A stretch of 64,000 nt of DNA from an uncultured Candidatus Bathyarchaeia archaeon (GTDB lineage: Archaea; Thermoproteota; Bathyarchaeia; RBG-16-48-13; CAYWPD01): contig CAYWPD010000001.1 in assembly GCA_964460055.1 (NCBI GenBank), forward strand, positions 1,376 through 65,375, in the 5' to 3' direction. Position 1 is the first letter of the stretch. Each line of letters starts with the position of its first letter. Under the pieces are notes generated by a model, which ran no database searches, was not told where the DNA came from, and was given only the letters and a program-made list of their open reading frames with translations. This document shows positions 2,441-58,648 of this stretch, in pieces. The position numbers were made by a program, and so were the translations under genes.

Positions 2441-4324
2441 CTAGATGGCGGCTTTAAACTTCGCCAGTGTGTCCTTTATGAGCTCGTTGGCTAGGTAGAG
2501 TTCGTCCTCAACAATGTTCTTTTGTCTTTGGAGCTTTGTCAGCATGAACTTGAACTCTGGTGACTGTGGTAGAGACATCTCCGCGAGCTTTAGCATTCCA
2601 TAGATCCGGGGGAATGGTGTAGCTCCGAAGGTTTCCATGGACATCTGCTCCGTCCTTTCTGCGTCTGAGTGGGCTACGAGGTTGATGTGTCTCGATACCC
2701 ACATGATGCACCGGTTCAGTTCCTCCAGCATCTCATCAGTTGCTGCCCCATCCACCGCCTTCCTCACAGTGCCCTCCAGCCTCTCTGCCAACTCCCGAAA
2801 TTCTCTGGCCCTCTCAATGACTGAATTGATATTGAAATAGAAACTGATCTTGCCAGCCCCAGCTTGAAGGTCTTCAAGTATCTTGAGCATGGCGTCAGCA
2901 TATGGGACGAAGTTCATGGGCAGGACTGGGCAGTTCGTAACCTTGAAGATGAAGTTGAGGTTCACCTTCACATCTGTGCCAAGGATGTCTATATCGCCAT
3001 GCTCGATGGTTTCGTAGGGCGTATGCCACCACCAACCGCCGCCCGAGTAGTTCACAAAGGGATCATACAGATCCTTGGGACGAGCTGAGATGGTGCTTGC
3101 ATGAGGAAGTCCTGTCCCCCAGAAACTGTGGTCTCCAGCCCGACTCGGCCAATGGGAGCCTTCGACCTTTACGCCCGCAACCGACGCTATGCTTTCAGTA
3201 ACCAACTCCTGCAATTCACCTATAGGGGCCTCTCTGTAGGTGGTGGCTCCCTCAGTTCCAGGCGAATCGATGTTGAAGAAGGCAGTACAGTAATACCGCA
3301 GCTCGTGCCAGAAAGCGTCATTGTACCAAGTTGAACCACCATAGCGCCCTATCTCATGAGCAGTCCAGAATGCGAACCGAATGCTCCGTTTGAGCTTCTC
3401 ACTGTGCCCGTTGAGGACGCGCGCCAGTTCGAGGATGGCTACATTACCAGAGGCGTTGTCTACAGCGCCGGGTGAGAAAGGTGGTGTATCAACATGGCCA
3501 TTCACCAACATGAACTTCTCCGGATCTCTCACCCCTCTAATCTCGGCGACCAAGAGTGGCAACTTCTTCCATCCAGTCTCCACGATGGAGGTGACATGAG
3601 CGCGCATGTTTCCCTGCTTCGCGAGAACCTTCAGCCGCTGACCATCTCTATTAGACACGTGGACTATGGCCGAGATCCGCTGGACTAAGTCTATGCTGTC
3701 GATGGTCGGATTTCCCGAAACGGAGAAGTCAGCGCGTTGGTGGCATATCGTCGGCATGAACGAGTCTTGTTCGATGACAATGAGGCCCTTGACGCCCATA
3801 TTTTGTAGCTTTAACAACAGTGCGCCTTGAAGCCCCATCCAGTCACCAGAAGTCTTCTGCTCCGCCAGTACGATTTTTCCACGGCAATCTATTCTGCCGA
3901 TTTGCTCTGGGTCTATGTAGATGACTTCGCCTTCTATGCCCTCAGGCCCGGTCGTCCCTACCTGACGGTAAGGTGTGCATTGAACCTCGACCATCTCCGG
4001 AGACAGTACCTCGAGTCTGGCCAACTTGGGTTCGCTGATGTAAGCTTCGTATCGGAGCACCTGTGGTTTGAGGCCGTATTCCTCGAGCTTCGATTTCAGG
4101 AACTGAATGGCCTTTTCCTCTTGTTGACTACCGGAGGGGAGAGGGGTCAGCTCCATGAGGCTCTTCCAGTTCCTTTGCAACTCTTCCTTGGAGACTTCAC
4201 CTTCAAGCTCAGCTAGGAGCTCTTTATCTTCGTCTGTGAGCCAGATCATGAAAATACCTCGATAATGGTTCCTCTCGAAAGGAGGGGTATAAGATTTGTT
4301 GGCACTGTCGCTGTCCCTGCGCAT
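2441..4324 (-). CDS. M28 family metallopeptidase (aminopeptidase-like, with PA-type insert)
   Basis: Conserved M28 zinc-ligand regions are present: NGHVDT, DNASGNVAILELARVL and FAFWTAHEIG. There is no N-terminal signal peptide. An internal Met at 4249 preceded by a GAGGU Shine-Dalgarno-like element may be the true start. Confidence 0.72.
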   Translation of the reverse strand: MRRDSDSANKSYTPPFERNHYRGIFMIWLTDEDKELLAELEGEVSKEELQRNWKSLMELTPLPSGSQQEEKAIQFLKSKLEEYGLKPQVLRYEAYISEPKLARLEVLSPEMVEVQCTPYRQVGTTGPEGIEGEVIYIDPEQIGRIDCRGKIVLAEQKTSGDWMGLQGALLLKLQNMGVKGLIVIEQDSFMPTICHQRADFSVSGNPTIDSIDLVQRISAIVHVSNRDGQRLKVLAKQGNMRAHVTSIVETGWKKLPLLVAEIRGVRDPEKFMLVNGHVDTPPFSPGAVDNASGNVAILELARVLNGHSEKLKRSIRFAFWTAHEIGRYGGSTWYNDAFWHELRYYCTAFFNIDSPGTEGATTYREAPIGELQELVTESIASVAGVKVEGSHWPSRAGDHSFWGTGLPHASTISARPKDLYDPFVNYSGGGWWWHTPYETIEHGDIDILGTDVKVNLNFIFKVTNCPVLPMNFVPYADAMLKILEDLQAGAGKISFYFNINSVIERAREFRELAERLEGTVRKAVDGAATDEMLEELNRCIMWVSRHINLVAHSDAERTEQMSMETFGATPFPRIYGMLKLAEMSLPQSPEFKFMLTKLQRQKNIVEDELYLANELIKDTLAKFKAAI

Positions 4325-4464: not shown

Positions 4465-5091
4465 TTGAGAATTTCCGTAATAGTTCCAATCACCGGTTTG
4501 AATGAAGATGGCCTCGCTGAAAGAGTGAAGGTGCTGAACTCCATCAAAAGGCCTGATACCGTGATAGAGTTTTACAGAAGCGTTTCTGGACCGCCTGCGA
4601 TCGAGACGCGCGTAGACCATGATCTCGCCGTGCCCGAGATCCTGAGACTGGTTAAGGAAGCTGAGAACAAGGGTAGTGACGCAGCCATAATTTGGTGTGC
4701 CGGTGATCCCGGCCTCGAATCTTCCAGAGAGCTTGTCGACATTCCGGTAGTCGGTCCGAGACAAGCCTCATTCTCAATCGCCATGAACCTAGGCAGCAAC
4801 CCTACGGTACTGCCGCCTCCGTTACCCGTTCTTGAGCTGCGAAAGGATCTGGAGAAGACGATGCGTCTGGCCGAGAAGGCTGCAAGAGACTTGATGCGGA
4901 GCAGCAACTCGGATGTCTTGATTCTTGGCTGCATGGGGCTCTTCGGCCTGGCTAGGAAGCTTAGTATCAATCTGGGGATTCCTGTGATCGATCCTGCGGA
5001 GGCCGCTCTCAGCATGGCGGAGACTCTAGCGCACCTCAAATTGAGGCACAGCAGGCTCACCTATCCGAAGTACGAACCTCCTTCTAGATGA
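4465..5091 (+). CDS. Asp/Glu/hydantoin racemase family protein
   Basis: The roughly 208-aa size, an N-terminal IxVIxP motif and two conserved Cys (WCAGDPG and LGCMG) are positioned like the catalytic pair of hydantoin/Asp-Glu racemases. Confidence 0.6.
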   Translation: MRISVIVPITGLNEDGLAERVKVLNSIKRPDTVIEFYRSVSGPPAIETRVDHDLAVPEILRLVKEAENKGSDAAIIWCAGDPGLESSRELVDIPVVGPRQASFSIAMNLGSNPTVLPPPLPVLELRKDLEKTMRLAEKAARDLMRSSNSDVLILGCMGLFGLARKLSINLGIPVIDPAEAALSMAETLAHLKLRHSRLTYPKYEPPSR

Positions 5092-5560
5092 CGCCTAGGA
5101 TTCAACTCCCGTCCCCGCCTTTTGGGATGAATTTCAATACTGTCGGCGGGAATTGACCTCTTTTATTCGTGTCTTCTGAAGCGTCTGATGTCGTCAGAGC
5201 CACAGACATACTCGAGGCCTGTTTCGATGAGTGAGCTGGCTCCTTCGACGTTTTTGGCAACTTTGCAGACGTATTCGTCATCCTTAGACCATATGAGCTG
5301 TGTATGGACCAAGATGTGGCGCGCGGAATCACGATGGGCTGGACCGAAATTAAGCCGAAATGAGGTCAAGTCCACTAGCGTGCACTAGATCTTCGAGCAA
5401 TCGCGTGCTTTCGCTAGGGATATCGGAAGACATGAAGCGCACGCGGGGGTTTTCATTCTAGTTTTCGCAGGATCTTCGCATCTGTCGTCCACGTAGTCGG
5501 GGAGAGAAGGCTTCAGTTGCGCGCGCTCAAAGAGAGAATGTGTGCGGGAAAACAAACGCT

Positions 5561-6655
5561 TCAGATCTGTAGAAAAGTCTGGATGAGCCTTGCGATCAGC
5601 ATTGCGGCAACCGAAGCCGTGATCAATGCGAGCTTTCCTATTAGTGGGTTCTCAATCGGCCAAGTCCTAACAGTCATGAGTTTCCTTTCTACAGTTTCCA
5701 ACGTCAATAGCCTGATCATGTTCTGGTCATCCTTCTCACCTGTTTCTTCGATGCGGCTAATGAGTTCTGACAATAGCTTATTTGTCGATGCGATTTCGGC
5801 CCTTTTCGCTTCGAGCAGCCTATTGTGAGTACTCACCAACGGCGCTATGAATAGTGTTATCCCGACAGGAACTAGGACGAGCATAAAAATCACGTTTACC
5901 ACAGATGTCTGGCCTGCTAATCCGCCAAGAATCATCTGCCCCGCAAAAAGAGTCAATCCCAAGAAATATGCCGATAAAAATGAAAAGGCCAGGGACCCTA
6001 ATTTCCTAGTCCCTAGCGTTGGATCCTCGTGATAAGATTTGAGCTTGAGGTTCTGCTTTCCAAATCGATAAAGTCCCAGTAGAGATGCGCAATATAGCCA
6101 CAGTATGGAGCCAAACATCACGGAACGAACGAGAGAACGGAGAATGTAAATTGGAGTGCTAAGAACAGTCAGCTCACCTTTGCCTACCAGCTCTGGGACG
6201 GATGTCGCGTAGACAAATAAGAAGACGGACATTATTACCAGCTGAGGAAAATATTCGGAAACGATATTGAAAATTCTGCGCACGTCCTTTTCTCCGTTTG
6301 GAGCCAGAGATATCAGCTCTGGTTCAGCTTTGACCAAACACATTCCAAGATAACGTATGATGAAAGCTACATAAAAAAGGAAAACGTACCAAAGAACGTT
6401 GCCTGCTAGGGAATACCAGTTGGACTGGACTGCCGCCACGAGTCCGAATTCTTCTGCATTCGTCGATATGAAAGTTTGATATAAGGCACCTATGGCATTG
6501 TGTGACACTGAGTACAGGTAAAGGAAATTCCCAAGTGGCCCAGCGAAAGCCGCAACGAAGATGGTGCCAAGCACGGATGGTAGATGTGAAAAAACAAGCG
6601 TTTTTTCGAGCAGTGTTGGACGAAAGCTATCTGTCTTTTTCTTCGTGGAACTCAC
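5561..6655 (-). CDS. polytopic membrane protein, uncharacterised (paralog A)
   Basis: A 364-aa ORF with multiple hydrophobic helices. It shares architecture with the adjacent 6807..7877 ORF, including a central LKLK(S/P)..ED motif and a C-terminal TWP(I/F) motif followed by a final helix. Confidence 0.6.
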   Translation of the reverse strand: MSSTKKKTDSFRPTLLEKTLVFSHLPSVLGTIFVAAFAGPLGNFLYLYSVSHNAIGALYQTFISTNAEEFGLVAAVQSNWYSLAGNVLWYVFLFYVAFIIRYLGMCLVKAEPELISLAPNGEKDVRRIFNIVSEYFPQLVIMSVFLFVYATSVPELVGKGELTVLSTPIYILRSLVRSVMFGSILWLYCASLLGLYRFGKQNLKLKSYHEDPTLGTRKLGSLAFSFLSAYFLGLTLFAGQMILGGLAGQTSVVNVIFMLVLVPVGITLFIAPLVSTHNRLLEAKRAEIASTNKLLSELISRIEETGEKDDQNMIRLLTLETVERKLMTVRTWPIENPLIGKLALITASVAAMLIARLIQTFLQI

Positions 6656-6806
6656 TTTCCTTTAATTCTTATGTCTGTTTGGAGCTTGATTTGCATTTGT
6701 TCGTGAACCTGCTCGGTTTGGGTCTGCGTATTTCTAACATCTGCGAACTTTGTTTTTGAGGTGGGCAAGTTGTCCACAACTGAGCTCATTCTGGGCTGAA
6801 TCATCT

Positions 6807-7877
6807 TCACAAGTTCATAACAACTGTAAGTATGTTAGCTAGCAATATCGCTGTCACGGAAAGCAGAATCGTGAGCATGTGTCCTAGTACCCCTGTGTCA
6901 AAGGGCCAAGTGGGGATTCTCTCGAGTCTCTTTTCCATAAAATCCATCAACAGCAATTTCTGGATGCAGTTGGGATTCTTCCCTATCTTTGTTTCGCCGT
7001 CCACAGACGAAATTTGCAGAGTCCTACGTTCTTCTAGGAGTTTATGCCTCTCGAGCTCCTTTTGCTCGACCATTTTTCTGCGAAAAACATTGATAGTGAG
7101 TAGGAATGCAATCAATCCGAAAACCACCAGGGTCAACTCAAATGCGAGGTTCACAGCCGTCGGAGTGATTTCAACGCCGGAAGCCAAGATTCCGAGCCCT
7201 CGCAAACCTACAGCTCCAAAGTACACTAGAACTAGAGCGAGAGAAATCGAACCGATTGGACCAAGGCCAAAGAGAGAGTCTTCTGAGGAGGGTTTCAACT
7301 TCATCGATTCTTTTGCAAGTTTGCGAAGACTCCAGACTGAACTGAAGAATAGCCATATTCCTGTTCCTCCTGCAAAGTAGAGTGTGACTTGCGAAAGCAC
7401 GACATATACCGAGCTGAAGCTCCCCAAAGATAGAGCAATCATCTTGTAGGCACTTGGCGCAAAACATGCCCCGATTATGGTTGTTGTCGCAAGTGCACCA
7501 ATTCGACTCGAAACGATGCGGAAATCCTTATCGAATGCTTCTTCTCCGGCTAAGAGCAAGGGTGAAAGTGCGGTTCGCGCCTTCACTAGTTGCCGTCGGA
7601 AATACCTTACGAAATAGAAGAGGTAGAACATGAAGCCCCCATACGCTATAGTCCAGTAGAACACGATAGCACGCCAGTAGCTTTCTGAACCAGTTACGGT
7701 TCCAGCGATAGAGAACGTCTGGGCGAGATTGTAGGAATCAAGGTATCTTGTCAACAAATAACCTGGGAATCCAAGCGTCAGAGTAAGAAGAATACAGCTA
7801 GCAGTGTAGGGGAGGGGTATGAAAGTCACAAATCCCTCGAAGAGGGTCTCTGTCACAGGCTCTCTCGAACCCTTCAC
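6807..7877 (-). CDS. polytopic membrane protein, uncharacterised (paralog B)
   Basis: A 356-aa ORF that is a tandem paralog of 5561..6655: same strand, 150 bp apart, with similar helix layout and conserved short motifs. Confidence 0.6.
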   Translation of the reverse strand: MKGSREPVTETLFEGFVTFIPLPYTASCILLTLTLGFPGYLLTRYLDSYNLAQTFSIAGTVTGSESYWRAIVFYWTIAYGGFMFYLFYFVRYFRRQLVKARTALSPLLLAGEEAFDKDFRIVSSRIGALATTTIIGACFAPSAYKMIALSLGSFSSVYVVLSQVTLYFAGGTGIWLFFSSVWSLRKLAKESMKLKPSSEDSLFGLGPIGSISLALVLVYFGAVGLRGLGILASGVEITPTAVNLAFELTLVVFGLIAFLLTINVFRRKMVEQKELERHKLLEERRTLQISSVDGETKIGKNPNCIQKLLLMDFMEKRLERIPTWPFDTGVLGHMLTILLSVTAILLANILTVVMNL

Positions 7878-8067
7878 TGAAAGCGTGCCTAGCCATTCTC
7901 TGAGTCCCGTATTGACGCCACTCCCGGTGGTTCTTGACCAGAAAAGTATTTAAATCTTCCCACATTGGAAAGAGATCTCTCACATTTGCGGACAATTCGC
8001 ACGTTTCGCTGGCAAGATATTTCCAAAATGTTAAATACCCGCGTTTCGATCTGGAATCAGAGGAAAT

Positions 8068-8631
8068 ATGCCTAATAGACTGGACGAACTTGACCTGAAG
8101 ATCATTCGACAGCTGCAAATTGATGCCAGAGCCTCGGTAACAGAGTTGGCTGAGAAAGTAGAGTCGTCTCGTCCTACGACGACAAATAGATTGAAGCGGT
8201 TACTGGACGAGGATCTGATTCTCATAAGGGGAGGTTTGAATCTTCGACAATTTGGCTTCAAAGTTGCACAAGTCGGTCTGGAGGTTCGAACCGACAACGC
8301 TAGAAAGAAAATCGAGAGCCATCTAAGGAACTGCCCCAGAGTCTTGGACATCTTTAGAACTCCCGAGAAGGCGAACATTCACTTGAACCTATGGGGAGAG
8401 GACGATCAAACGATCAACTCGACAATAGAAAGTTTTCGCGATCAGCAAAATGTAGGCATAGTCTACACTCGCTACCTGGGAACCCCTATTCACGGAGATA
8501 TCCCCGTTCATGTTGAAACGAGAAAGAATGATGAAACTCCATGCGGCAGGAAATGTAGTGGATGCCACAGCTATCAAAATGCATGGTGCAGAGGTTGTCC
8601 ATCGTCATCAGACTACAAAACTTTCTTCTAA
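8068..8631 (+). CDS. Lrp/AsnC family transcriptional regulator with Cys-rich C-terminal extension
   Basis: N-terminal HTH_AsnC pattern (LDELDLKIIRQLQIDARASVTELAEKV) is followed by a RAM-like domain. A roughly 40-aa tail, CGRKCSGCHSYQNAWCRGC, gives CxxxCxxC...CxxC. Confidence 0.8.
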   Translation: MPNRLDELDLKIIRQLQIDARASVTELAEKVESSRPTTTNRLKRLLDEDLILIRGGLNLRQFGFKVAQVGLEVRTDNARKKIESHLRNCPRVLDIFRTPEKANIHLNLWGEDDQTINSTIESFRDQQNVGIVYTRYLGTPIHGDIPVHVETRKNDETPCGRKCSGCHSYQNAWCRGCPSSSDYKTFF

Positions 8632-8797: not shown

Positions 8798-10408
8798 CTA
8801 GGACTGCCTCCTTCTTAGAACCATGCCTGCTCTCGCGCCTATATGCTCTCCATTTTCTACCGCAGCCTCACCGTTGACTATTACATAGCGGATGCCCTGA
8901 GGATACCGATGTGGGTCTTGGTATGTTGCAAGATCCAACACCGTATCAGGGTCGAAGATTGTTACGTCGGCCTGCATTCCTTCGGCCAGGAGCCCACGGT
9001 CGAGTAGCCCAAGTCTACGAGCCGGCAGTGAGGTCATCTTGCGGACTGCTTCCTCAAGCCGCAGGATCTTCTTATCGCGTATGTACCTGCCTAGAACCCG
9101 TGGGAAGGTTCCGTAGTTTCGGGGATGAGGCTTTCCAACATGGAGTTTTCCATACGGGGCATAACTGCTTCCGTCCGTCCCTATCATTGAACCGGGATAT
9201 CGAAGCACCGTTTCGACGTCCTGCTCATTCATCTCAAAGATCACTATCTGGGCGACGCCTTTGCTCTCCACGAGCAGATCGAAGGCAGTGTCGATTGGAT
9301 CCCTGTCTCTCAGCTTTGCGATCTCGGCGACGCTCTTTCCTTCCAGTGATCTGTCTGGGTCAAACTGTGAGATGATTATGTTCTCCCATCCGGCCTGCCT
9401 AGCTAAGTCTTCCCATCTGGGTATGCCTTCTATTATCTCGTGTTTCAGTCTCGATCTGATTTTCTTATCGCCCAGTCTGCTCACTAGGTTCGAAAGCCCT
9501 TCTTCATGAGCCCAAGTCGGAATACAGGCACTGAGGTCCGTACTTCCTGCCGTATACGGGTACACATCGCAGGTGACGTCAACTCCTCTCTTGCGTGCCT
9601 CCTCGATCATCCGTAGAGAATCGTTTACCTTGCCCCAGTTCTCGCTCCCCGCCGCCTTGTGATGCGATATCTCCACTGGCACCCCGGCTCTTTCTCCGAT
9701 CGCTATTGCCTCGTCCACAGCTTCAAGAAGGTAGTTGCTTTCATTTCTGATGTGACTGGAATAGAATCCTCCGTATCCTGATACGACTTTGCATAGTTCA
9801 ACAAGTTCTTCTGTCTTTGAGTATGAGCCTGGTGCGTATATCAGTCCTGAAGAGAGTCCTCGAGCGCCATCCTTCATAGCCTCTCCGACAAGCCCCTTCA
9901 TCTCTTCCATTTCGACTTCGGTTGGACTCCGATTATCGTAACCCATCACGGCAATTCGCACAGTGCCGTGGCCTACCAGTGGGGCGACATTGACTGAGAT
10001 CTTTCTCTCTTCCAGAGTCCTCAGATAGTCTTCGAAGGATCTCCAAGCCCAGTTGACCTCTTCTGCTAGCGGCATGCAGTTCTTCTTCAGAAGGTCCAGT
10101 CTGTCCTCGCGTATGGGTGCGAGTGTTGAACCACAATTTCCTAGAACCTCTGTGGTAACTCCTTGTCTGATCTTGCTTTCTGCCAAGGGGTTTATGAGGA
10201 GATGGAGGTCCGAATGGCTATGCATGTCGATGAAGCCTGGTGCAACTATGAGGCCGGAGCCGTCTATTGTGAGATTAGGCTCGGCTCCGTGGAAAGGGCC
10301 TATTCCTGAGATTTTGTCGGATTCGATCAGAACATCAGCCTTAAACCACGGATTCCCGGTTCCGTCGACGACGAACCCATTCTTAATCAGAACGTCTCCC
10401 ATCACCAT
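8798..10408 (-). CDS. N-acyl-D-amino-acid deacylase (D-aminoacylase) family amidohydrolase
   Basis: The ORF has a metal-binding GFIDMHSHSD motif, is about 536 aa long, and carries the glycine-rich C-terminal region typical of D-aminoacylase-type amidohydrolases. Confidence 0.68.
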   Translation of the reverse strand: MVMGDVLIKNGFVVDGTGNPWFKADVLIESDKISGIGPFHGAEPNLTIDGSGLIVAPGFIDMHSHSDLHLLINPLAESKIRQGVTTEVLGNCGSTLAPIREDRLDLLKKNCMPLAEEVNWAWRSFEDYLRTLEERKISVNVAPLVGHGTVRIAVMGYDNRSPTEVEMEEMKGLVGEAMKDGARGLSSGLIYAPGSYSKTEELVELCKVVSGYGGFYSSHIRNESNYLLEAVDEAIAIGERAGVPVEISHHKAAGSENWGKVNDSLRMIEEARKRGVDVTCDVYPYTAGSTDLSACIPTWAHEEGLSNLVSRLGDKKIRSRLKHEIIEGIPRWEDLARQAGWENIIISQFDPDRSLEGKSVAEIAKLRDRDPIDTAFDLLVESKGVAQIVIFEMNEQDVETVLRYPGSMIGTDGSSYAPYGKLHVGKPHPRNYGTFPRVLGRYIRDKKILRLEEAVRKMTSLPARRLGLLDRGLLAEGMQADVTIFDPDTVLDLATYQDPHRYPQGIRYVIVNGEAAVENGEHIGARAGMVLRRRQS

Positions 10409-10414
10409 TTTCTC

Positions 10415-12076
10415 CTATTCATTCTCTTGTGCTTCGAAAGAATTGACCTGTCTAGGTTTCTGATAGACTATTTTTCCCCCGACGATGGTCACGTCGACCT
10501 CGACATTCTTTATCCGCTCGGTTGGTATGATGGTTATGTCCTCATGTAGGACAGTGATATCTGCCAATTTTCCTTGCTCTATTGAACCCTTCAGATCCTC
10601 TTCAAAGGAGGCGTATGCTCCATCGATCGTATATGCTCTCAACGCGTCGACAACACTGATGCACTCACTCTCATCAAGGACCATTCTGGCCATCGTCTTC
10701 CGCGTGATCATTCCGTAGATACCTAGCATTGGGTTCTCCGAGCAGACTGGGAAGTCTGAATGTCCAGGCGCTCTAATGCCGAGGGATTTCAAGGTTCTGT
10801 GTGGGAGCACATTCCTCATTCTGCCTTCGCCTAGGTTCGCTAGATAGGCGTCTCCGAGATCATAGATGAAACCGGCCGCCGACATGTTCAACACATCGAG
10901 ACGCTTCAGCCTCGCCGCAATGCTTGAAGTGACATAACAGCAGTGCTCTATCCTATGCCGGTGATTCTTCTTGGGCAGAGCTTCCAGAGCTTTCTCTATG
11001 GCATCTAGGCATGCATCTATCCCTCTGTCTCCGACTCCATCCAATCCGACGCGGAGACCTGCCTTGTGAGCTTGAAGAACCATGGAGTTCATCACCTCCG
11101 GCGGATAGAGAATGAATCCTCGGTTTTCCGGTTCCCCCAAATATGGCTCATAGTATGCAGCTGTTCTGCCGCTTGTGCTGCCATCAAAGACCCATTCGAT
11201 GCCGATTACCTTGATCCACTCGTCTCCAAAACCCGTTTCCAGCCCCGTCTTTATCAGCGCTGAGAGCAGTCCCTCCTCCCCTCCATCCATCATCAGGCCA
11301 ACTCTGATCGGCAGTTCTCCTTCCCTGCGAAGTTCTTGGAAAGCCTTCAAATGTAGCGAGCCGGCGGTCGAGGCTTGTATACTTGTTATACCGCATCGCG
11401 TAAGTTGCTGGAAGCAGAGTTTCAGGCCTTTCTTGATGTCTTCTAGCGTGTAAGGTGGGATCGAGTCTCGGACGAGTTCTTGGGCCCTTCCTCTCAAAAC
11501 TCCCGTGAGTTCTCCATCGGATGCTCTATCTAGCTTTCCGGAGGGTGGATCTTTGGTCTCTCTTCCAACCTCTGCCTTCTCGAACGCCAAAGTGTTGCCG
11601 ACGCTCACATGCCCATCTACTCTTCTGACGTATACTGGGTTGCATGGGGCCGCTTCATCCAGCTCCCACCTTGTGACGTGCCTATTCTCTTCGAGTTTGG
11701 TATTGTCGTAGCCCCAGGCTATTATCCAAGTGCCTGGCTCTGTATGCTTCGCCTTCTTCGAGATCTCAGTCTTCAGATCTGCGATGGATTTGACTTTAGG
11801 GTATCTGCAGTCCACCTCACTCAGCAGCCTTGTGGCGAGATGGGTTGGATGTGTATGGGAATCCACTATTCCAGGAATCGCACATCTTCCCGAGAGATCG
11901 ATCTTCACTGTCTTAGGCCCTGCCGATGATAGAGCCTCATCGCTAGTCCCGACGAAAGTGATTCTGTCGGACTTGATGACAACAGCTTGGGCGATGGTAT
12001 CGTCCTCATCGAGAGTAACTATCTTCCCGTTGAAGAGAACTAAGTCGGCGCTCACACGATCTGTTGTCGCGATCAT
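10415..12076 (-). CDS. amidohydrolase family protein (Amidohydro_3 / YtcJ-like metal-dependent hydrolase)
   Basis: A 553-aa ORF with an N-terminal IPGIVDSHTHP metal-binding motif, a C-terminal HSDFPV and a GKLADITVL-type terminus typical of Amidohydro_3 enzymes. Confidence 0.7.
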   Translation of the reverse strand: MIATTDRVSADLVLFNGKIVTLDEDDTIAQAVVIKSDRITFVGTSDEALSSAGPKTVKIDLSGRCAIPGIVDSHTHPTHLATRLLSEVDCRYPKVKSIADLKTEISKKAKHTEPGTWIIAWGYDNTKLEENRHVTRWELDEAAPCNPVYVRRVDGHVSVGNTLAFEKAEVGRETKDPPSGKLDRASDGELTGVLRGRAQELVRDSIPPYTLEDIKKGLKLCFQQLTRCGITSIQASTAGSLHLKAFQELRREGELPIRVGLMMDGGEEGLLSALIKTGLETGFGDEWIKVIGIEWVFDGSTSGRTAAYYEPYLGEPENRGFILYPPEVMNSMVLQAHKAGLRVGLDGVGDRGIDACLDAIEKALEALPKKNHRHRIEHCCYVTSSIAARLKRLDVLNMSAAGFIYDLGDAYLANLGEGRMRNVLPHRTLKSLGIRAPGHSDFPVCSENPMLGIYGMITRKTMARMVLDESECISVVDALRAYTIDGAYASFEEDLKGSIEQGKLADITVLHEDITIIPTERIKNVEVDVTIVGGKIVYQKPRQVNSFEAQENE

Positions 12077-12629: not shown

Positions 12630-13778
12630 CTATAGCTCAGTCCCGGGTATACGTCTTTCTCGACTTTGGAAAAACAGTAGGAATGTGGAAAACGATGTCA
12701 AGAGCGCGAACAGCAAGAAAGGAGACCTAAGATCGACTCCTAGGAGAGGAGTGACCAAGATCGGCATAGCGGGAAACGATAGGTCGATGACGCCGTCAAA
12801 GAAGGCCATGTATAGACTCTCCATGCCCGAGGGTGCCGATTTCGCTATCATGGCACCGGACTGGACGAAGACCGCTCCAAGGGTCACACCTAGCCATCCC
12901 ATCCAGACGGCCATCAGGACAGGGTTCTTCGAGATGTAAAGCAAAAAGAAGGGTGGCACGCAAGACAGTGCAAAGAAGGCGGCCAAGAATCGGCCTCTCC
13001 ATTTCTCGAATACGACTCCGAGAGGGATCTGAAAAAGCAGGAACGTTACGAAATAGGAAGAAAGAATCAATCCTATCGTGACATTCGAGAACCCTTCGGA
13101 TGACCCGATGAGAGGAATGACCAATTCAAAGCCTGCAAATCCAATTTCTACGAGAAAGACCGCTAGACATACCATTACTACGGAGTATCTGGAGAGCAGG
13201 TCTCTAATGGAGTGTCTGAAGGTCTCTCTTGCGGCGACTGTTTTCTTCTCCGAAATCAGTATCATCGTGGGAATGCCGGCTGCACTAACCAGCGCACTCA
13301 GGAAGAATGGATACGAAAGATTCAGCGACCCAAGGATTCCTCCCAATATGGGTGCGATCATCATTCCAAATCCTTGGAAAGTCCTGTAGATCGAAAAACT
13401 CTTCGACTTCTCTCCCATCTGAGCGATCAATCCCAAAACGGCTGGTCCAAAGATCCCAAGCCCTATACCCTGGATGACACGGAAGACTACAAGTTGAAAG
13501 AAGGTCTGGGCGACCCCACATAGTAGGGCAGAGGCTCCATAGGTTGCCAAACCCAATGACCCAAGTCTCTTTTTGCCGTACTTATCGCAAAGATGCCCGG
13601 TAAACATCTCAAGTAAGGCCCAAGTTAGAGAATAAGCGGAAAAAAAGGCCCCTATTTCCGCATACGTCACCCCATACTTCTCGACGTATTGAGGGAGGAT
13701 TGGCGACACTACGAACAGTCCGAAGGTACTGAGGAATCCCAAGACAGATGTGCCCAGTAGCGCAATCTTTCTTTCCAA
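12630..13778 (-). CDS. MFS transporter
   Basis: A 382-aa protein with about 12 hydrophobic helices and glycine-rich loops characteristic of MFS transporters. Confidence 0.78.
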   Translation of the reverse strand: MERKIALLGTSVLGFLSTFGLFVVSPILPQYVEKYGVTYAEIGAFFSAYSLTWALLEMFTGHLCDKYGKKRLGSLGLATYGASALLCGVAQTFFQLVVFRVIQGIGLGIFGPAVLGLIAQMGEKSKSFSIYRTFQGFGMMIAPILGGILGSLNLSYPFFLSALVSAAGIPTMILISEKKTVAARETFRHSIRDLLSRYSVVMVCLAVFLVEIGFAGFELVIPLIGSSEGFSNVTIGLILSSYFVTFLLFQIPLGVVFEKWRGRFLAAFFALSCVPPFFLLYISKNPVLMAVWMGWLGVTLGAVFVQSGAMIAKSAPSGMESLYMAFFDGVIDLSFPAMPILVTPLLGVDLRSPFLLFALLTSFSTFLLFFQSRERRIPGTEL

Positions 13779-13925
13779 TTAGGAACAATCCGGCGCTTCT
13801 GCCCTAGTGTGGAGCGGGCTACAGGATCAAGTTAGGCTCTTTCTGAGCGTTTCGAACTTTTAGGGATATTCTTCGCCCCTGCTCCAGTACCGAGACTCGG
13901 CTCTTTTTGGTCTCTGATAATCAGA

Positions 13926-14693
13926 CTATTTCGTTTTTTCAAGGAACTTCGTCAGGACGTATAGGATTCGATCCACTGAAGCCTCTATCAGCTTCTCACC
14001 AAGCTCTTTGGAAGCGTAGGTTGGATCTCCGACAGAACCCGTGTTTGTGTAGTCTTCGAAGTATCTTGTTGGATTGGGTTGGATCTTCTCGCTGTATCCC
14101 TTCGGTTCCAGACTGATCTCGGGCGTTCTTACAAAGGGCCTTAGAATCCTGTCCATCCTGACTGTCTCCGGCAGTAGATACATAGCCATGCTGGTCTCGA
14201 TCTCGCAGGCATGCCCCCAGAACTCGGACTTCGCCTCCTTGGCTTCTATGTCTCGCGTGAATCTCCACCAGTCAATCACCAGAATACTCCGTTCCAGTTC
14301 ATTCTGGAGCTCTGTCGCGGCCACCCACAGGGCTTGATCATTACCCCCATGCCCGTTCAGCAAGACGATCTTTCTCGCGCCATGCCTAGCTAAGCTCCTG
14401 CAGATGTCGCTTATCACTCCGATGAATGTCTCCGGGGAGAGCGTAATTGTCCCCGCAAAGTGCATATGGTGTTCGGATAGGCCGTATGAGACTCGTGGAG
14501 CCACAAGGATTCTGAGGCTCGACTTCGTTTTCTCGACGATCTTCTTGGCAACCTCGTGGGTGAGGGCAGTATCATTCTGTAGCTCCATATGGTGGGAGTG
14601 CTGTTCGTGGCTTCCGATGGGAACGATGACGTAATCGGCGGACTTGATCGCTTCGTCAGCCTCTTGCCATGTCATCCTCTCAAGCTCGAACAT
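13926..14693 (-). CDS. creatininase-family amidohydrolase
   Basis: Creatininase-family motifs are present: IVPIGSHEQHSHH, LLNGHGGN and a WGHACEIETS-like Glu/His region. It is 255 aa long. Confidence 0.75.
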   Translation of the reverse strand: MFELERMTWQEADEAIKSADYVIVPIGSHEQHSHHMELQNDTALTHEVAKKIVEKTKSSLRILVAPRVSYGLSEHHMHFAGTITLSPETFIGVISDICRSLARHGARKIVLLNGHGGNDQALWVAATELQNELERSILVIDWWRFTRDIEAKEAKSEFWGHACEIETSMAMYLLPETVRMDRILRPFVRTPEISLEPKGYSEKIQPNPTRYFEDYTNTGSVGDPTYASKELGEKLIEASVDRILYVLTKFLEKTK

Positions 14694-20704: not shown

Positions 20705-21988
20705 GTGAAGGACATGCTGACGAATTCAGAGGTCGAAGTCCATAGGTACCTAGAAAGCTGTAAAGATACAATGGTTTCATTCCTTCAGAATCTGATACGG
20801 ATTCCCACGCAAGTTCCTCCGGGAGAGAACTACGATCGAATCGCGAGCCTCTTGAGTAAGCGACTCGAGGAGCTAGGCTGTCAAGTCTCGATTCACGAGG
20901 CACCCGAAGAGTACCTCGTGAAGTCCGGGAAAGACTTCCTCGGACTCAACGGTCCGCGAAGCAACCTAATCGCACGGCACAGAGGCACGAGGGGAAGACC
21001 AGTTCTGCATATCAATGGTCACACAGACGTTCAACCTGCCACACCTGCAGGGTGGTCGACAGATCCATTCGAGGGAGTGGTGAAGGACGGACATGTGTTC
21101 GGCAGAGGTTCGTCTGACGACAAGGCAGAGTTGACCGCCTTGGTATTTGCTTTGGAGGCTTTACGAAAAAATGGTCCTCCGCTGAAAGGAGATCTACTTC
21201 TGACGGCAACGTGCGACGAGGAAATTGGCGGAATCGCTGGGCTCGGTTACCTCTTCGACAACCACTTGATCGCTGCGGATTTCGGCATCGAGCTGGACGG
21301 ATCTGCGGACAACATCGGTATCGCATATAACGGAAGGATACGGTATCTCCTCTCATCCTATGGGAGAGCAGCCCATGGGCAGACACCACACTTGGGCATT
21401 AACGCGATCGAGAAGATGTCGAAGATGATCACCGCCCTGACCATGTATTGGAGGGGCACACTGATGCAGAGGGGTGTCGACATCCCTGTCTCTCCATCTC
21501 TCAAGCTCGACAGACTGGTTGCCATGCTAAACATCGGAACAATCAAGGGAGGAGTCCAAGGGGCGACCGTTCCGGACATTTGCACTTCAGAGATTTTGCG
21601 ATGCATCGTACCTAGAGAAACGCGAGAGGATGCAGAGAGGGAGCTAAGGGAAATCCTGGACAAAGTGAAGTCTGAGGATATCGATGTGAGTTATCAGTTG
21701 ACTGAGATAAACTATCGAGATGGCTGCTACATCTCACCGAACCACCCATACGTCGAAGAGATCAACGGCATCATCAGAGACGTTATTGGCCATCCGCTTC
21801 CGCTCTACGGACACACGGCGAGCTGCGACATGAACTATCAGATCAACCAAGGAAAGATCCCATGCGTGGGCTTTGGAGCCGGAGGACCATACTCCAGAGG
21901 TCATGGAGTAGACGAGAATGTCAGAATCAGCGAACTCGTAGATCTTGCCAAGATCGTTAGCACAATCATTCTCAGGAAGTTGGCATGA
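20705..21988 (+). CDS. M20 family metallopeptidase (ArgE/DapE/acetylornithine deacetylase-like)
   Basis: M20 metal-binding motifs are present: HINGHTDVQPA, GRGSSDDKAE and a dimerisation-domain region. It is 427 aa long. Confidence 0.8.
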   Translation: MKDMLTNSEVEVHRYLESCKDTMVSFLQNLIRIPTQVPPGENYDRIASLLSKRLEELGCQVSIHEAPEEYLVKSGKDFLGLNGPRSNLIARHRGTRGRPVLHINGHTDVQPATPAGWSTDPFEGVVKDGHVFGRGSSDDKAELTALVFALEALRKNGPPLKGDLLLTATCDEEIGGIAGLGYLFDNHLIAADFGIELDGSADNIGIAYNGRIRYLLSSYGRAAHGQTPHLGINAIEKMSKMITALTMYWRGTLMQRGVDIPVSPSLKLDRLVAMLNIGTIKGGVQGATVPDICTSEILRCIVPRETREDAERELREILDKVKSEDIDVSYQLTEINYRDGCYISPNHPYVEEINGIIRDVIGHPLPLYGHTASCDMNYQINQGKIPCVGFGAGGPYSRGHGVDENVRISELVDLAKIVSTIILRKLA

Positions 21989-26773: not shown

Positions 26774-28246
26774 CTACATTCTGTAGAGCGGCTTGCAACC
26801 GGTTGTGGGGTATCTGATGACGGTTTCTTCTCCGTTGAATTCTGGTAGGGCGAGATCAATCGGTGGCTTCTCGTCCTTTGGTATGAGGCATTCTTCGATG
26901 CCGCCTTGAGTCCTCTCCTTGAATTCGGCCTTTGCTTTCTTGAGTTGCTTCGAGTCGGTGAGAAGTTCAATCATACTCGCAGCGATTGTCTTTGCTGCGA
27001 ATAGGCCGCCCTTGTGTGTTATTCCCGTCTTGGATGTGGTAGCGATGGCCCAGCTTGGAATATCAAAGCCTGTAGGGCTTTTGAACCACATTGTGGTGTG
27101 AAGCCAAGCCGACGGCGCGTACCAAGTGAATTCGTTGAAGTCGTCGCAGCCTCCTTTGAACCATTGTTCAAGTTCCCAAGGTTTGGTCAGAGCTTCGTCG
27201 AGCGGTTCCTTCATAGGTTCAAATCCAAGGTTTCTCTGGATCTCTCTGCAGAACTCCTTCTCGTCATCTGTGAATTGGGGAGCACCGACAAGCTCCATGT
27301 TCCTGAAGACGAGTTCTGAAAGAGCATGGTTAGGTACGCCAGTCCTGCTAGCTCCCATTATGCGTGTGTTGAATTTCATGCCGGCTGCAAGAGCCGCAGC
27401 TTCGGCGCATTTCTTGAGGACTTCGAAGATCTTCTTGGTTCCCGAGATGGTGGGGCTTCGCATCGCGTAGAAGACTTCGGCAAACTCTGGAATATTTGTG
27501 AGGCATTGTCCGCCCACGCTGACTATCTCGTTCAGCGAAGGATATTCATCATGAGGTAGAATCTGTTCTTTCATGAAGTTGGCAAGCACGTTCATCATTA
27601 CGACTCCATCCAGCGCGCTCCTACCTGCCCAAGGTCGGCCACCATAGGTCTGAAGACCTTGGAACTGGAAAGCTGCGGCGAGGTAACATCCAGGTAGGTA
27701 GTCCCATACCACCGTGTTGAAGTTCAGCGGATGATTGGCAATGACGGCGTCGAGATCATCATAGAAGCCGTCTCTCGCTTGGAAGGCCTTTGCTATGCAG
27801 ATCTTCTCGGCTGGTGTTCCGAATATTTTGAGCGTTCCTTTCAATCTGTGGCGGTCCATAGCTTCCTTTGCTGCGACGATTCCTGAAGTGGCCGCTACTC
27901 CTAACATGTTGTGCTTGTCCTCAAATCCAGGCGCGTGAGGTATGACTGGTTCGCGAAAAGGAACTGGTTTCTGTGAGTTCCCCGGTGTGGCGTCGTACTC
28001 CGCGTAGGTTGCTATGATTGGTTTTCCGTCGCCGTAGGTTGCGACGAAGGCCGTAGGCATTCCTGAAATGCCCATCTCTACATCAAAGTCGTTTTTCCTG
28101 AGATAGTCGCATAGGAGTCTGCTAGATCTGTATTCTCGGAGTGCGGGCTCCGCGTATTCCCAAATGGTGTCGCTCATTTTCGTGATGGTCTTCTTGTTTG
28201 CCTCTATGTACTCCAGAGCGGTCCGCTTCTCTTTTGAAGCCTTCAA
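26774..28246 (-). CDS. M20D family amidohydrolase (AbgB / aminobenzoyl-glutamate utilisation protein B-like)
   Basis: A 490-aa ORF with M20-type metal ligand regions (HAPGFEDKHNMLG..., GTPAEK) resembling AbgB-type amidohydrolases. Confidence 0.72.
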   Translation of the reverse strand: MKASKEKRTALEYIEANKKTITKMSDTIWEYAEPALREYRSSRLLCDYLRKNDFDVEMGISGMPTAFVATYGDGKPIIATYAEYDATPGNSQKPVPFREPVIPHAPGFEDKHNMLGVAATSGIVAAKEAMDRHRLKGTLKIFGTPAEKICIAKAFQARDGFYDDLDAVIANHPLNFNTVVWDYLPGCYLAAAFQFQGLQTYGGRPWAGRSALDGVVMMNVLANFMKEQILPHDEYPSLNEIVSVGGQCLTNIPEFAEVFYAMRSPTISGTKKIFEVLKKCAEAAALAAGMKFNTRIMGASRTGVPNHALSELVFRNMELVGAPQFTDDEKEFCREIQRNLGFEPMKEPLDEALTKPWELEQWFKGGCDDFNEFTWYAPSAWLHTTMWFKSPTGFDIPSWAIATTSKTGITHKGGLFAAKTIAASMIELLTDSKQLKKAKAEFKERTQGGIEECLIPKDEKPPIDLALPEFNGEETVIRYPTTGCKPLYRM

Positions 28247-36450: not shown

Positions 36451-37812
36451 GTGGCCGTCTTGGACGCCTTCAAACTCACTCTCTCTGAGGCTTCAAATCA
36501 AATCCACGAAAATCGACTTTCTCCGAGTGCTTTGCTTGAATCACTGCTTCTGCGCATCGATGAGCTGGAACCTAAACTCAGGGTTTGGACAAGAATCGAC
36601 AGGGATGGAGCGAAGGTCACCGCAGAGAAGTACTCGAAGGAGGCAATGCAGGGAAGGTTTCGTGGCCCCCTTCACGGTATCCCTGTCGGAATCAAAGACA
36701 TCTACTACACTGTAGGGATGAAGACGACCGCCGGCTCCAAGATCCTCGCTGATTTCGTGCCAGACTACAACGCCACTACCATCACTAGGTTGAAGGAAGC
36801 CGGCGCTATAATTCTTGGAAAGACAGAGACCACAGAATTTGCTGCCTTTGATCCAGCTCCTACACGGAATCCGTGGAACGTTGAACATACTCCCGGCGGC
36901 TCCAGCAGCGGGTCTGCCGCGGGGGTCTCCTCAGGGATGATCTCGGCGGCCTTGGGTTCACAAACCGGAGGTTCAACTATCAGGCCTGCATCCTACTGCG
37001 GCATCGTAGGTTTCAAGCCAACCTATGGCCGAATCAGCCGGCATGGCATAATTCCCGTTAGTTGGTGCTTGGATCACGTTGGAATCTTCACTAGGACGGT
37101 GGTGGATGCAGCTATTTTACTGGAGGTACTTGCTGGATACGATCCTAGAGATACTGCCTCATCGAATCTGCCGGTTCCGCCGTACAGAAATGCTGTGAGC
37201 AAAATTGGTCCTCCAGAGATAGGTCTTCTGAAGGAATTCTTCTACGATATGGCTAATGAAGAAGTCAAGAAGAATCTTGAGGAGATCATTGCCCGACTTG
37301 GAAGAGCTGGTGCCAAGGTCGTTGACGCGAAGTTGCCTGAAAGCTTCAGAGCAGCTCATGCAGCCCAGAGAGTCGTTATGATAACTGAGGCGGCAGCATT
37401 TCATGAGGAGACATTCCGAACACGAATGATGGACTATCGTCCCAAGATGCGTGGCATGATTGCTTCAGGGCTAACCGTCCCGATCTCGACCTACATAAAG
37501 GCTCAACGCATTAGAGGTCAATTCATCCGTGAGATGAACACGATCTTAGGACAGTTCGACTGTTTCCTAATGCCTGCTACACCTGCGCCAGCGCCCAAAG
37601 GACTGGAGAGCACAGGCGATCCGAATTTCAATACTCCTTGGAGCTTCTGCGGCTTTCCTACGATAACGATCCCCTCGGGATTATCGAAAGACAGGCTTCC
37701 GTTTGGTATCCAGTTAGTAGGCCGTCCGTTCGATGAAGAAACGGTGCTAAGAGTCGCACATTGGTGTGAAAGAATGATCGGGTTCGGAAAAGACCCTCAC
37801 AATCCTGAATAG
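36451..37812 (+). CDS. amidase (amidase-signature family, GatA-like)
   Basis: The amidase-signature motif GGSSSGSAAGVSSGMISAALGSQTGGSTIRPAS is present along with a catalytic Ser-cisSer-Lys layout. Confidence 0.85.
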   Translation: MAVLDAFKLTLSEASNQIHENRLSPSALLESLLLRIDELEPKLRVWTRIDRDGAKVTAEKYSKEAMQGRFRGPLHGIPVGIKDIYYTVGMKTTAGSKILADFVPDYNATTITRLKEAGAIILGKTETTEFAAFDPAPTRNPWNVEHTPGGSSSGSAAGVSSGMISAALGSQTGGSTIRPASYCGIVGFKPTYGRISRHGIIPVSWCLDHVGIFTRTVVDAAILLEVLAGYDPRDTASSNLPVPPYRNAVSKIGPPEIGLLKEFFYDMANEEVKKNLEEIIARLGRAGAKVVDAKLPESFRAAHAAQRVVMITEAAAFHEETFRTRMMDYRPKMRGMIASGLTVPISTYIKAQRIRGQFIREMNTILGQFDCFLMPATPAPAPKGLESTGDPNFNTPWSFCGFPTITIPSGLSKDRLPFGIQLVGRPFDEETVLRVAHWCERMIGFGKDPHNPE

Positions 37813-51236: not shown

Positions 51237-52574
51237 TTAGGCCTTGATCTGCTTCTCGACCTCTTCTATGGATTTGTCGACGATCGATGTGATCTCCCTC
51301 ACCTGATCCTCTGTCGAGATCAGCATGGGAGCGACTTGGATTTGATCTCCGGCCAGACCTTCGATTGAAGGTCCTCCACAGTACACCAAAAGACTGTTCT
51401 TGAAGCACTGCTCGACCACGGACGAGCCTACCCCCATCTTCGTCGGGAAGATCTCCTTGGTTCTCTTGTCTTTGACGAACTCTATCCCGGCCATCAGGCC
51501 TTTGCCACGTACATCTCCGACGATTCTGTGCTTGTCTTTGGCTTCTTCCAGGCCTTCGAAGAGGGTTTTCTCAATGTTTCCAACTCTCGAGATCAGCTTA
51601 TGGTCCATCAGATACTCTAGAACCGCGAGTCCGACGGCGCAAGAGAGAGGATTTCCTCCGTAGGTGAATCCATGCACAAAGAGTGATTTCTTGAATGGCT
51701 CGAAGATCTCCGTGGATGCGATGAGGGCTCCTAGAGGTGCATAGCCGCTCGCGATCCCCTTTGCACAAATCATCATGTCGGGGACGACGCCATAGTGCTC
51801 TATGCCGAAGTTCTTCCCTGTTCTTCCGAAGCCGGTCTGCACCTCGTCTGAAATGAGGAGGATATTGAACTTGTCGCAGATCTCTTTGATGATTTTGAAG
51901 TACTCTTTGGGAGCCGGTACAGATCCGAGCGTTGATCCCACTATCGGCTCGGCGACGAACGCTGAGACGTACTCGGGGCCGGCGGTCTTTATGGCGCGCT
52001 CTAAATCTCTAGCGCATTCCAGATCGCAGCTAGGGTACTCCTTTCCGAACCAGCAACGGTAGCAGTACGCAGGGGCTATGTGAGGGAAGTCTAGGAGAAG
52101 CGGTACGTACTTTTCCCTTCGCATCGGGTGCCCCGAGGCCGATAGCGCACCCAAGGTGTTCCCATGATAGGAGAGCCACCTTGATATTGTCTTGTATCTT
52201 CGTGGTTCTCCCTTCTCGAGGAAGTACTGCCTAGCGAGTTTGATAGCCGACTCCATGGCCTCAGATCCACCCGAACATGGAAAGACCTTCTTGAGGTTGC
52301 CAGGACAGAGCTCTGAAACCTTCTCCGCGAATTTCTCCACGGGTTCGCATGTGAGGTGCATTGCGTGGGCGAAGGCGATCTTTCCTGCTTGGATTTTCAT
52401 CTTCTCGACGACTTCATCAACTCCGTGGCCGATTCCAACGCAGAGCGGGCCTCCGCTACCGTCGAGGTATCTTCTTCCATTGCTATCCCAGACGTACACG
52501 CCTTTTCCGTGGCTGACGTAGATGGGAGCTTCTGCCCTGTGAAACACATAGGACTCCTTGGGCTTCTCAGACAT
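51237..52574 (-). CDS. class III (aspartate aminotransferase family) PLP-dependent aminotransferase
   Basis: The N-terminal G.G.Y.WD..G..YLD pattern, LISDEVQTGFGRTG and a PLP-Lys in CAKGI are present. It is 445 aa long. Confidence 0.85.
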   Translation of the reverse strand: MSEKPKESYVFHRAEAPIYVSHGKGVYVWDSNGRRYLDGSGGPLCVGIGHGVDEVVEKMKIQAGKIAFAHAMHLTCEPVEKFAEKVSELCPGNLKKVFPCSGGSEAMESAIKLARQYFLEKGEPRRYKTISRWLSYHGNTLGALSASGHPMRREKYVPLLLDFPHIAPAYCYRCWFGKEYPSCDLECARDLERAIKTAGPEYVSAFVAEPIVGSTLGSVPAPKEYFKIIKEICDKFNILLISDEVQTGFGRTGKNFGIEHYGVVPDMMICAKGIASGYAPLGALIASTEIFEPFKKSLFVHGFTYGGNPLSCAVGLAVLEYLMDHKLISRVGNIEKTLFEGLEEAKDKHRIVGDVRGKGLMAGIEFVKDKRTKEIFPTKMGVGSSVVEQCFKNSLLVYCGGPSIEGLAGDQIQVAPMLISTEDQVREITSIVDKSIEEVEKQIKA

Positions 52575-58573: not shown

Positions 58574-58648
58574 CTTGATCCCATAAGAATCTCGTAGGCA
58601 TGGAAATTAAGCGTTAGTCGAGTGGCCCAATAGCCGAGTCGTCTGGCT

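Follow-up and report, generated by a model that had tools for sequence, protein, structure and literature searches.

Adjacent paralogous seven-transmembrane proteins with a predicted 7TMIC-like fold in an archaeal genome

Two neighboring genes for polytopic membrane proteins of no named family raise the question of what kind of proteins they encode and whether the two products work together. The genes, here called A and B, lie near one end of a 64,000-nucleotide stretch of DNA (the window) from an uncultured Candidatus Bathyarchaeia archaeon (contig CAYWPD010000001.1 of assembly GCA_964460055.1). A first reading of the letters (the original prediction) had described them as a tandem duplication of an unrecognized membrane protein next to a divergent Lrp-type regulator, forming perhaps a regulated transporter or sensor pair. 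The reading that we favor, and consider rather likely, is that A and B are paralogs in a large unnamed family with the fold of the seven-transmembrane ion channels (7TMICs), and that they probably act together, perhaps as subunits of a tetrameric and probably ligand-gated channel. The founding members of the 7TMICs are the insect odorant receptors (ORs) and gustatory receptors (GRs). Our direct results concern the paralogy, the size of the family, the predicted fold and topology, the pattern of conservation and the linkage of the genes.

Paralogy, family and signature motifs

The two open reading frames (ORFs) of 364 and 356 amino acids (aa) are adjacent, polytopic and both on the minus strand, as had been predicted. 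BLASTP aligned A and B over their full length with 27% identity and 46% positives (E=1e-28). Their Smith-Waterman score of 297 was compared with nulls obtained by full shuffling (42+/-7), by shuffling in 20-residue blocks (58+/-14) and by shuffling in 10-residue blocks with the transmembrane (TM) layout kept (78+/-20), which corresponds to z-scores of 38, 17 and 11, respectively. The identity is 23.6% outside the TM helices and 24.6% inside them, thus the likeness is not an artefact of hydrophobicity. As judged from these alignments, A and B are genuine diverged paralogs, and the proposed tandem paralogy holds with an identity that is not at background level. No third family member was found within the window.

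Neither protein gave a match above noise in Pfam, NCBIfam or PADLOC (DUF2583 and YchH appeared at E>0.1), and ten distant members, then 59 members, produced only scattered sub-threshold matches to Pfam. By sequence, protein A had no match in the Protein Data Bank (PDB); the family profile likewise retrieved no OR or GR among PDB sequences, and only a 45-residue light-harvesting peptide (E=0.023). Word-indexed searches with A (>=45% identity) yielded 42 clusters and those with B (>=51%) yielded 18; every one of them consists of unnamed proteins from metagenomes or metagenome-assembled genomes (MAGs). A further word-indexed search with a broad alignment added neither sequences nor informative names. 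We then searched a profile of the A and B groups against 1.84 billion cluster representatives (50% identity clusters). It matched 1,158 proteins at E<=1e-3, of which 443 reached <=1e-10 and 179 reached <=1e-30; almost all are 330-390 aa long and aligned full-length. By these searches, A and B belong to a sizeable family without a name, absent from Pfam and NCBIfam. The original remark that the family could not be recognized is thus right for named sequence families, but the family can be recognized by structure as having the 7TMIC fold (see below).

A rough neighbor-joining tree built from 173 full-length members places the A and B clades as sister groups. The remaining members share about 26% identity with A as well as with B, for which reason the A/B duplication looks lineage-specific. 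A scan of species representatives in the Genome Taxonomy Database (GTDB) with an A-only alignment gave a single match, in a Thermoplasmatota MAG, and the assignment of the family to Thermoplasmatota comes from the title of one MAG. No match was found when plasmids were searched with B by tblastn. One member, P0061 (443 aa, 46% identical to A), has an N-terminal extension of about 95 residues ahead of the 7-TM core.

The two short motifs noted originally turned out to be the main signatures of the family. The loop motif reads L203-K-L-K-S...E210-D211...L214-G215...G220-S221 in A and M192-K-L-K-P...E199-D200...F203-G204...G209-S210 in B. The pattern LKLK(S/P)..ED...LG is therefore real in both proteins, although B has MKLKP rather than LKLKP and F-G rather than L-G. 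The C-terminal motif is R330-T-W-P-I-E in A and P322-T-W-P-F-D in B, so that (R)TWP(I/F)(E/D) also stands, except that the Arg before TWP occurs in A only. For the analysis of conservation we aligned 59 members with 19-60% identity to A, whose numbering is used here. G215, W332 and P333 are invariant, D211 is conserved in 98%, G220 in 97% and G199 in >90% of the sequences, and G265, F269, P272, H277 and M280 in the inner part of TM6 are each >=93% conserved.

Across the family, regional conservation is highest at the junction of the two TM7 segments, TM7a and TM7b (0.67), followed by internal loop 2 (IL2, the TM4-TM5 loop; 0.63). Intermediate values were obtained for TM5 (0.51), TM6 (0.49) and TM7b (0.49), and the lowest for external loops EL1-3 (0.28-0.30) and TM3 (0.33); TM7a itself and the TM6 extension are moderately conserved (0.38 each). 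The outer helix halves and the external loops are the parts that diverge most between A and B, yet they are conserved inside each group: for EL1-EL3 the agreement between the A and B consensus is 0.12-0.17, compared with a within-group conservation of 0.58-0.95. An Arg in TM7b that is common to most members ('ARxI', R356 in A) is replaced by Asn in B of the window ('LLANIL'); other B-type orthologs retain it.

Predicted fold and topology

All structural evidence comes from predicted monomers. AlphaFold2 with family alignments gave confident models of both proteins, with pLDDT 79.2 and pTM 0.74 for A and pLDDT 89.0 and pTM 0.85 for B. Both models were compared with solved insect structures, including ApisOR5-Orco (8z9a/8z9z), AgamOR28 (8v3d), Gr43a (8jm9) and BmGr9 (8vc1). 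Model A scored 12.0 with AgamOR28, 11.9 with ApisOrco, 11.7 with Gr43a, 11.6 with BmGr9, 11.3 with Gr64a, 10.3 with MhOR5 and 9.4 with ApisOR5. The scores of model B were 13.2 for Gr43a, 12.7 for AgamOR28, 11.9 for both ApisOrco and Gr64a, 11.7 for BmGr9, 11.6 for AaegOR10, 10.0 for ApisOR5 and 9.8 for MhOR5. Each of these matches aligned 232-270 residues, and the similarity to the solved OR and GR structures is significant.

We compared A and B with the hallmarks of the 7TMIC superfamily as they are listed in text passages of Himmel, Moi & Benton 2023 (10.1101/2023.08.30.555482). Both proteins have seven TM helices with the characteristic packing, according to hydropathy and the models. The positive-inside rule gives an N-in/C-out topology, with 25 (A) and 24 (B) Lys or Arg residues on the cytoplasmic side versus one externally in each. 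The external loops are shorter than the internal ones: EL2 and EL3 have about 7 residues each, compared with about 26 in IL1, 25 in IL2 and 60 between the TM6 extension and TM7a; EL1 is longer (about 28 residues) and poorly conserved. TM6 forms one helix of 55 (A) or 57 (B) residues, TM4 spans 35-38 residues and TM5 only 27. TM7 is split in both proteins (Table 1), with the break at residues 329-337 in A. A short conserved N-terminal helix (residues 15-22; T14 90%, E17 98%) precedes TM1; an N-terminal re-entrant loop (TM0) was not among the criteria that Himmel et al. applied (10.1101/2023.08.30.555482).

Structure prediction, which had been suggested as a check, gave a 7TMIC-like fold. The guess of a sensor or transporter appears right in spirit, the predicted fold being that of insect ORs and GRs, which are ligand-gated channels. 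We consider A and B quite probably homologous to the insect receptors and regard them as probable 7TMIC homologs with a 7TMIC fold, rather than as proven members.

Linkage of the two genes and the divergent regulator

Loci were gathered by exact-protein look-ups and a metagenome scan, and A, B and the regulator were located in them by tblastn and hidden Markov models; the survey of pairing relies on short metagenomic contigs. B-type genes with enough flank were available from ten lineages (the window, L005, L009, L012, L016, L018, L019, L020, L035 and L036), and in all ten the immediate neighbor of B is an A-type gene. Two of them, the window and L016, the lineage most closely related to it, have the genes in tandem (B then A). 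In the remaining eight the genes converge, and 61-115 bp separate their stop codons. L009, L018 and L036 show the arrangement Lrp<- ->B <-A where the window has Lrp<- ->B ->A, which implies that A was inverted in the lineage of the window. The tandem form described originally is the minority, so that the layout itself shows neither a simple tandem duplication nor an operon. Pairwise identities between genomes for A and B (75/73, 68/65, 66/66 and 65/64%) indicate equal rates of divergence.

The neighbors other than A, B and the regulator differ in every lineage. Genes for an M28 peptidase, an Asp/Glu racemase, two Amidohydro_3 proteins, an MFS transporter and a creatininase flank the pair in the window; elsewhere the neighboring genes encode PPIase/LOR, CorA/urocanase, glyoxalase or cytochrome b5. 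A conserved operon or pathway was rejected since the flanking genes change between lineages. In one lineage only (L012, 7127-9208), a CorA-family gene precedes the A-type gene on the same strand at a distance of 100 bp, with a divalent-cation channel next to the putative channel. The single-copy member P0042 (45% identical to A) in L007 (1055-10602) is located between two guanylate-cyclase/TPR genes and an ABC/12TM_1 pair, signalling-type surroundings unlike those of the other loci. In L021 the A-type gene (553-1647) is broken by an in-frame stop into ORFs 553-783 and 787-1647, with no B detected alongside, which reflects either a pseudogene or an error in the assembly.

The promoters of the locus look archaeal. 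The T-rich run 3' of A looks like an archaeal terminator, and its position right after A, together with the lack of an oligo-T run after B, suggests that in the genome of the window B and A are on a single transcript from a promoter region shared with the regulator. In the region between B and the regulator, the two TATA blocks and a TTCGCA element in the middle are kept in the lineages that have this regulator, and in a three-genome alignment of this region the TATA block of the regulator is identical in 3/3. Two further ORFs, in another frame or on the opposite strand, look like by-products of real genes: one of 106 aa (7798-8118, minus strand) that overlaps the promoter region and spans both TATA boxes, and one of 182 aa (6832-7380, plus strand) that overlaps gene B. 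No Rfam family and no tRNA was found in the window.

The regulator has an N-terminal helix-turn-helix (HTH) domain (PF13404, 52 bits with a cutoff of 27), while its RAM domain (PF01037) remains below the threshold (12.6 bits versus 25, E=0.13); in NCBIfam it shows a weak likeness to LysM/Lrp equivalogs, all far below their cutoffs. It ends in a Cys-rich C-terminal tail, CGRKCSGCHSYQNAWCRGCPSSSDY, within residues 157-187 (about 8536-8628), TPCGRKCSGCHSYQNAWCRGCPSSSDY. The L009 ortholog retains all five tail Cys residues. Binding of a metal or an Fe-S cluster is a possible role of this tail. To our knowledge, a C-terminal tail of about 30 residues with five Cys is not typical of Lrp/AsnC proteins. 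Orthologs that are 68-75% identical occupy the same position in L009, L018 and L036 (full-length and 75% identical in L036), so that the 187-aa regulator is divergent from B in 4/10 paired lineages including the window. The control of B and A by this regulator is tentative, and we lean against it.

Table 1. Features of the A/B locus in window coordinates. The spacer, the T-rich run, the divergent promoter region and the TATA-like elements were read from the sequence.
Feature	Position	Strand	Description
Gene A	5561..6655	minus	364 aa, GTG start; 7-TM 'A-type' paralog, 7TMIC-like fold (predicted)
Gene B	6807..7877	minus	356 aa, GTG start; 7-TM 'B-type' paralog, 7TMIC-like fold (predicted)
A residues 203-221, LKLKSYHEDPTLGTRKLGS	5993..6049	minus	TM4-TM5 loop, cytoplasmic by its six K/R; predicted part of the 'anchor'
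B residues 192-210, MKLKPSSEDSLFGLGPIGS	7248..7304	minus	Same cytoplasmic loop; D200, G204 and G209 conserved (alignment)
A residues 251-305	5741..5905	minus	Single 55-residue helix, TM6 plus ~30-residue cytoplasmic extension (DSSP of model)
T331-W332-P333 codons of A	5657..5665	minus	Break TM7a/TM7b; W332 and P333 invariant; DSSP gap between H310-328 and H338-361
T323-W324-P325 codons of B	6903..6911	minus	Same junction; W324 and P325 invariant (74-sequence alignment); DSSP gap between H302-320 and H328-353
A residues 338-361	5573..5644	minus	TM7b, last membrane helix (DSSP, hydropathy)
B residues 328-353	6819..6896	minus	TM7b (DSSP, hydropathy)
T-rich run, TTTGTTTTCCC	5546..5556	minus	Starts 5 nt past the A stop codon
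B-A spacer	6656..6806	minus	151 bp; coding strand without oligo-T run
Divergent promoter region	7878..8067		Between B and regulator
TATA-like element for B, TTTAAATA	7954-7947	minus	
TATA-like element for regulator, AAAATGTTAAATAC	8025-8038	plus	
AsnC/Lrp-type regulator	8068..8631	plus	187 aa, divergent from B; PF13404 E=4.9e-14

The window is rich in genes for peptide, amide and amino-acid catabolism, a context that is not common to relatives of the pair. These include M28 and M20 peptidases, the Asp/Glu racemase, the two adjacent Amidohydro_3 genes, the MFS transporter and the creatininase, as well as an amidase, class III and class V aminotransferases, an arginine-deiminase-like gene and a saccharopine dehydrogenase (2441-4324, 4465-5091, 8798-12076, 12630-14693, 20705-21988, 36451-37812, 51237-52574 and 57392-60022). 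A 490-aa ORF at 26774-28246 (minus strand) has no Pfam match at E<=1e-5.

Interpretation and comparison with known systems

In the mechanism that we propose, each protein would begin with a cytoplasmic N-terminus and form seven TM helices. TM6 would extend about 30 residues into the cytoplasm, after which the chain would return as helix TM7a, break at Thr-Trp-Pro and recross the membrane as TM7b, so that the C-terminus lies on the external side. In analogy to insect OR, Orco and GR channels of known structure, four subunits would surround a central pore, which TM7b, including that of A, is predicted to line. The TM4-TM5 loop (LKLK..ED..G...GS), the inner part of TM6, TM7a and the TWP junction would together provide the anchor between subunits as well as the hinge of the gate. 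A ligand pocket would be made up of EL1-EL3 and the outer halves of TM1-TM4 and TM6, all of them variable, and a small ligand in this outer helix bundle would gate the channel. A and B would act jointly, possibly as a heteromer; that a B-type gene always stands beside an A-type gene argues that the two probably work together. For tetrameric channel function, which is drawn from analogy, our confidence falls slightly short of even, and co-assembly of A with B we hold to be somewhat unlikely.

Several results weigh against this interpretation. The profiles 7tm_6, 7tm_7 and DUF3537 had no valid match in 59+ members of the family. The sole 7tm_7 match, of P0094 (E=0.0013), was dropped because residues 105-318 were aligned to profile positions 13-229, that is about 90 residues or about two helices out of register. 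The absence of a sequence-profile bridge lowers the claim of homology without excluding it; the single-pass HMMER searches used here are weaker than the iterated PSI-BLAST of Himmel et al. 2023. Foldseek comparisons of the models with the PDB were also not significant (best E 0.04); Gr43a had the highest probabilities (0.75-0.80) and insect GRs and ORs were enriched among the top matches, which we do not count as independent support. In passages of Himmel et al. (10.1101/2023.08.30.555482), true 7TMIC matches are described as having mostly poor Foldseek E-values and requiring structural validation. Finally, the idea that orthologs are always duplicated holds for B but not for A: A-type genes stand alone in L025, L029, L023 and L028, and also in L007 and L013, which are more distant. 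Two independent channels that differ in specificity agree equally well with the convergent transcription, the unpaired A genes and the equal rates.

Such independent channels or receptors, each homo-oligomeric, would have divided their ligand specificity after the duplication and remained neighbors through little rearrangement. The six lineages with A alone imply that A needs no B, and in 8/10 paired lineages the convergent genes are separately transcribed; the group-specific EL1-EL3 and outer helix halves, and the equal pace at which A and B evolve, point the same way. However, B never occurs without an adjacent A (10/10), and this adjacency has outlasted at least one inversion and a full turnover of neighbors, which is beyond inertia at 60-75% protein identity. 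On balance we find it doubtful that the two act independently. We also think it unlikely that joint action goes as far as an obligate heteromeric 7TMIC channel, a prokaryotic counterpart of OR-Orco that would have arisen independently in the Thermoplasmatota lineage. In some members of the lineage, expression of such a channel would be controlled by the Cys-rich Lrp/AsnC regulator, in response to a redox/metal signal or to an amino acid.

A transporter or sensor pair as in the original prediction, taken here to form one regulon together with the divergent Lrp/AsnC gene and to be tied to amino-acid and amide catabolism, seems improbable to us. It gains from the regulator placed divergently from B in the window, L009, L018 and L036, from the conserved TATA blocks and TTCGCA element, and from the peptidase, racemase, Amidohydro_3, MFS transporter and creatininase genes that flank the pair in the window. 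The regulator adjacency is real there, but it is confined to four of the ten paired lineages, and A-type genes often stand alone with unrelated neighbors. Structural convergence, by which an unrelated prokaryotic 7-TM family (transporters, signal transducers or other membrane proteins) would merely resemble insect ORs and GRs through its helical bundle and long cytoplasmic hairpin, is highly improbable in our estimate, with the missing profile bridge on its side and the significant similarity to solved structures on the other.

The insect smell and taste receptors are part of an ancient channel superfamily, the prokaryotic members of which were recognized only in 2023; that work, by Himmel, Moi and Benton, was reportedly published later in Current Biology. 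No report on the function of prokaryotic 7TMICs was found in the literature that we searched. The present family, with >1,000 clusters at 50% identity, has a simple signature that consists of ED..G...G in the loop and an invariant W-P where TM7a and TM7b are separated. The two paralogs, adjacent through inversion and neighbor turnover, provide a natural experiment in which co-assembly becomes a concrete hypothesis, and the locus supplies a recurrent candidate regulator. Should A and B prove to be ligand-gated channels, they would offer small archaeal models of the insect receptors, at which pest and disease-vector control is aimed; if they are not, the 7TMIC fold would serve another purpose in prokaryotes. 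An obligate heteromer, if true, would open prokaryotic 7TMICs to functional work for the first time and would provide a small, tractable model of the evolution of heteromeric chemoreceptor channels.

The kind of protein is already known, as prokaryotic 7TMICs (Arch7TMIC/Bac7TMIC) have been described (Himmel, Moi & Benton 2023; 10.1101/2023.08.30.555482). In the text passages of that paper we found neither the A/B pairing nor the TWP signature nor a recurrent neighbor of the Lrp/AsnC type. Set against these passages, the family and its signature, the strict pairing of B with A and the recurrent Cys-tailed Lrp/AsnC neighbor appear to be new. The conservation profile of the family is the anchor-plus-pore pattern reported for 7TMICs. 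The lengths of TM4 and TM5 match the prokaryotic 7TMIC subtype, in which these helices are shorter (10.1101/2023.08.30.555482), rather than the insect one. The regulator resembles the Lrp/AsnC (FFRP) proteins in its N-terminal AsnC-type HTH and its divergent placement beside a candidate target gene, and differs from them in the sub-threshold RAM domain and the extra conserved 5-Cys tail. The OR-Orco type of obligate heteromer has two co-occurring paralog classes, one of them a slowly evolving co-receptor that the other requires; in the present pair, B was found with A in 10/10 lineages and A sometimes alone, and A and B showed no asymmetry of rate.

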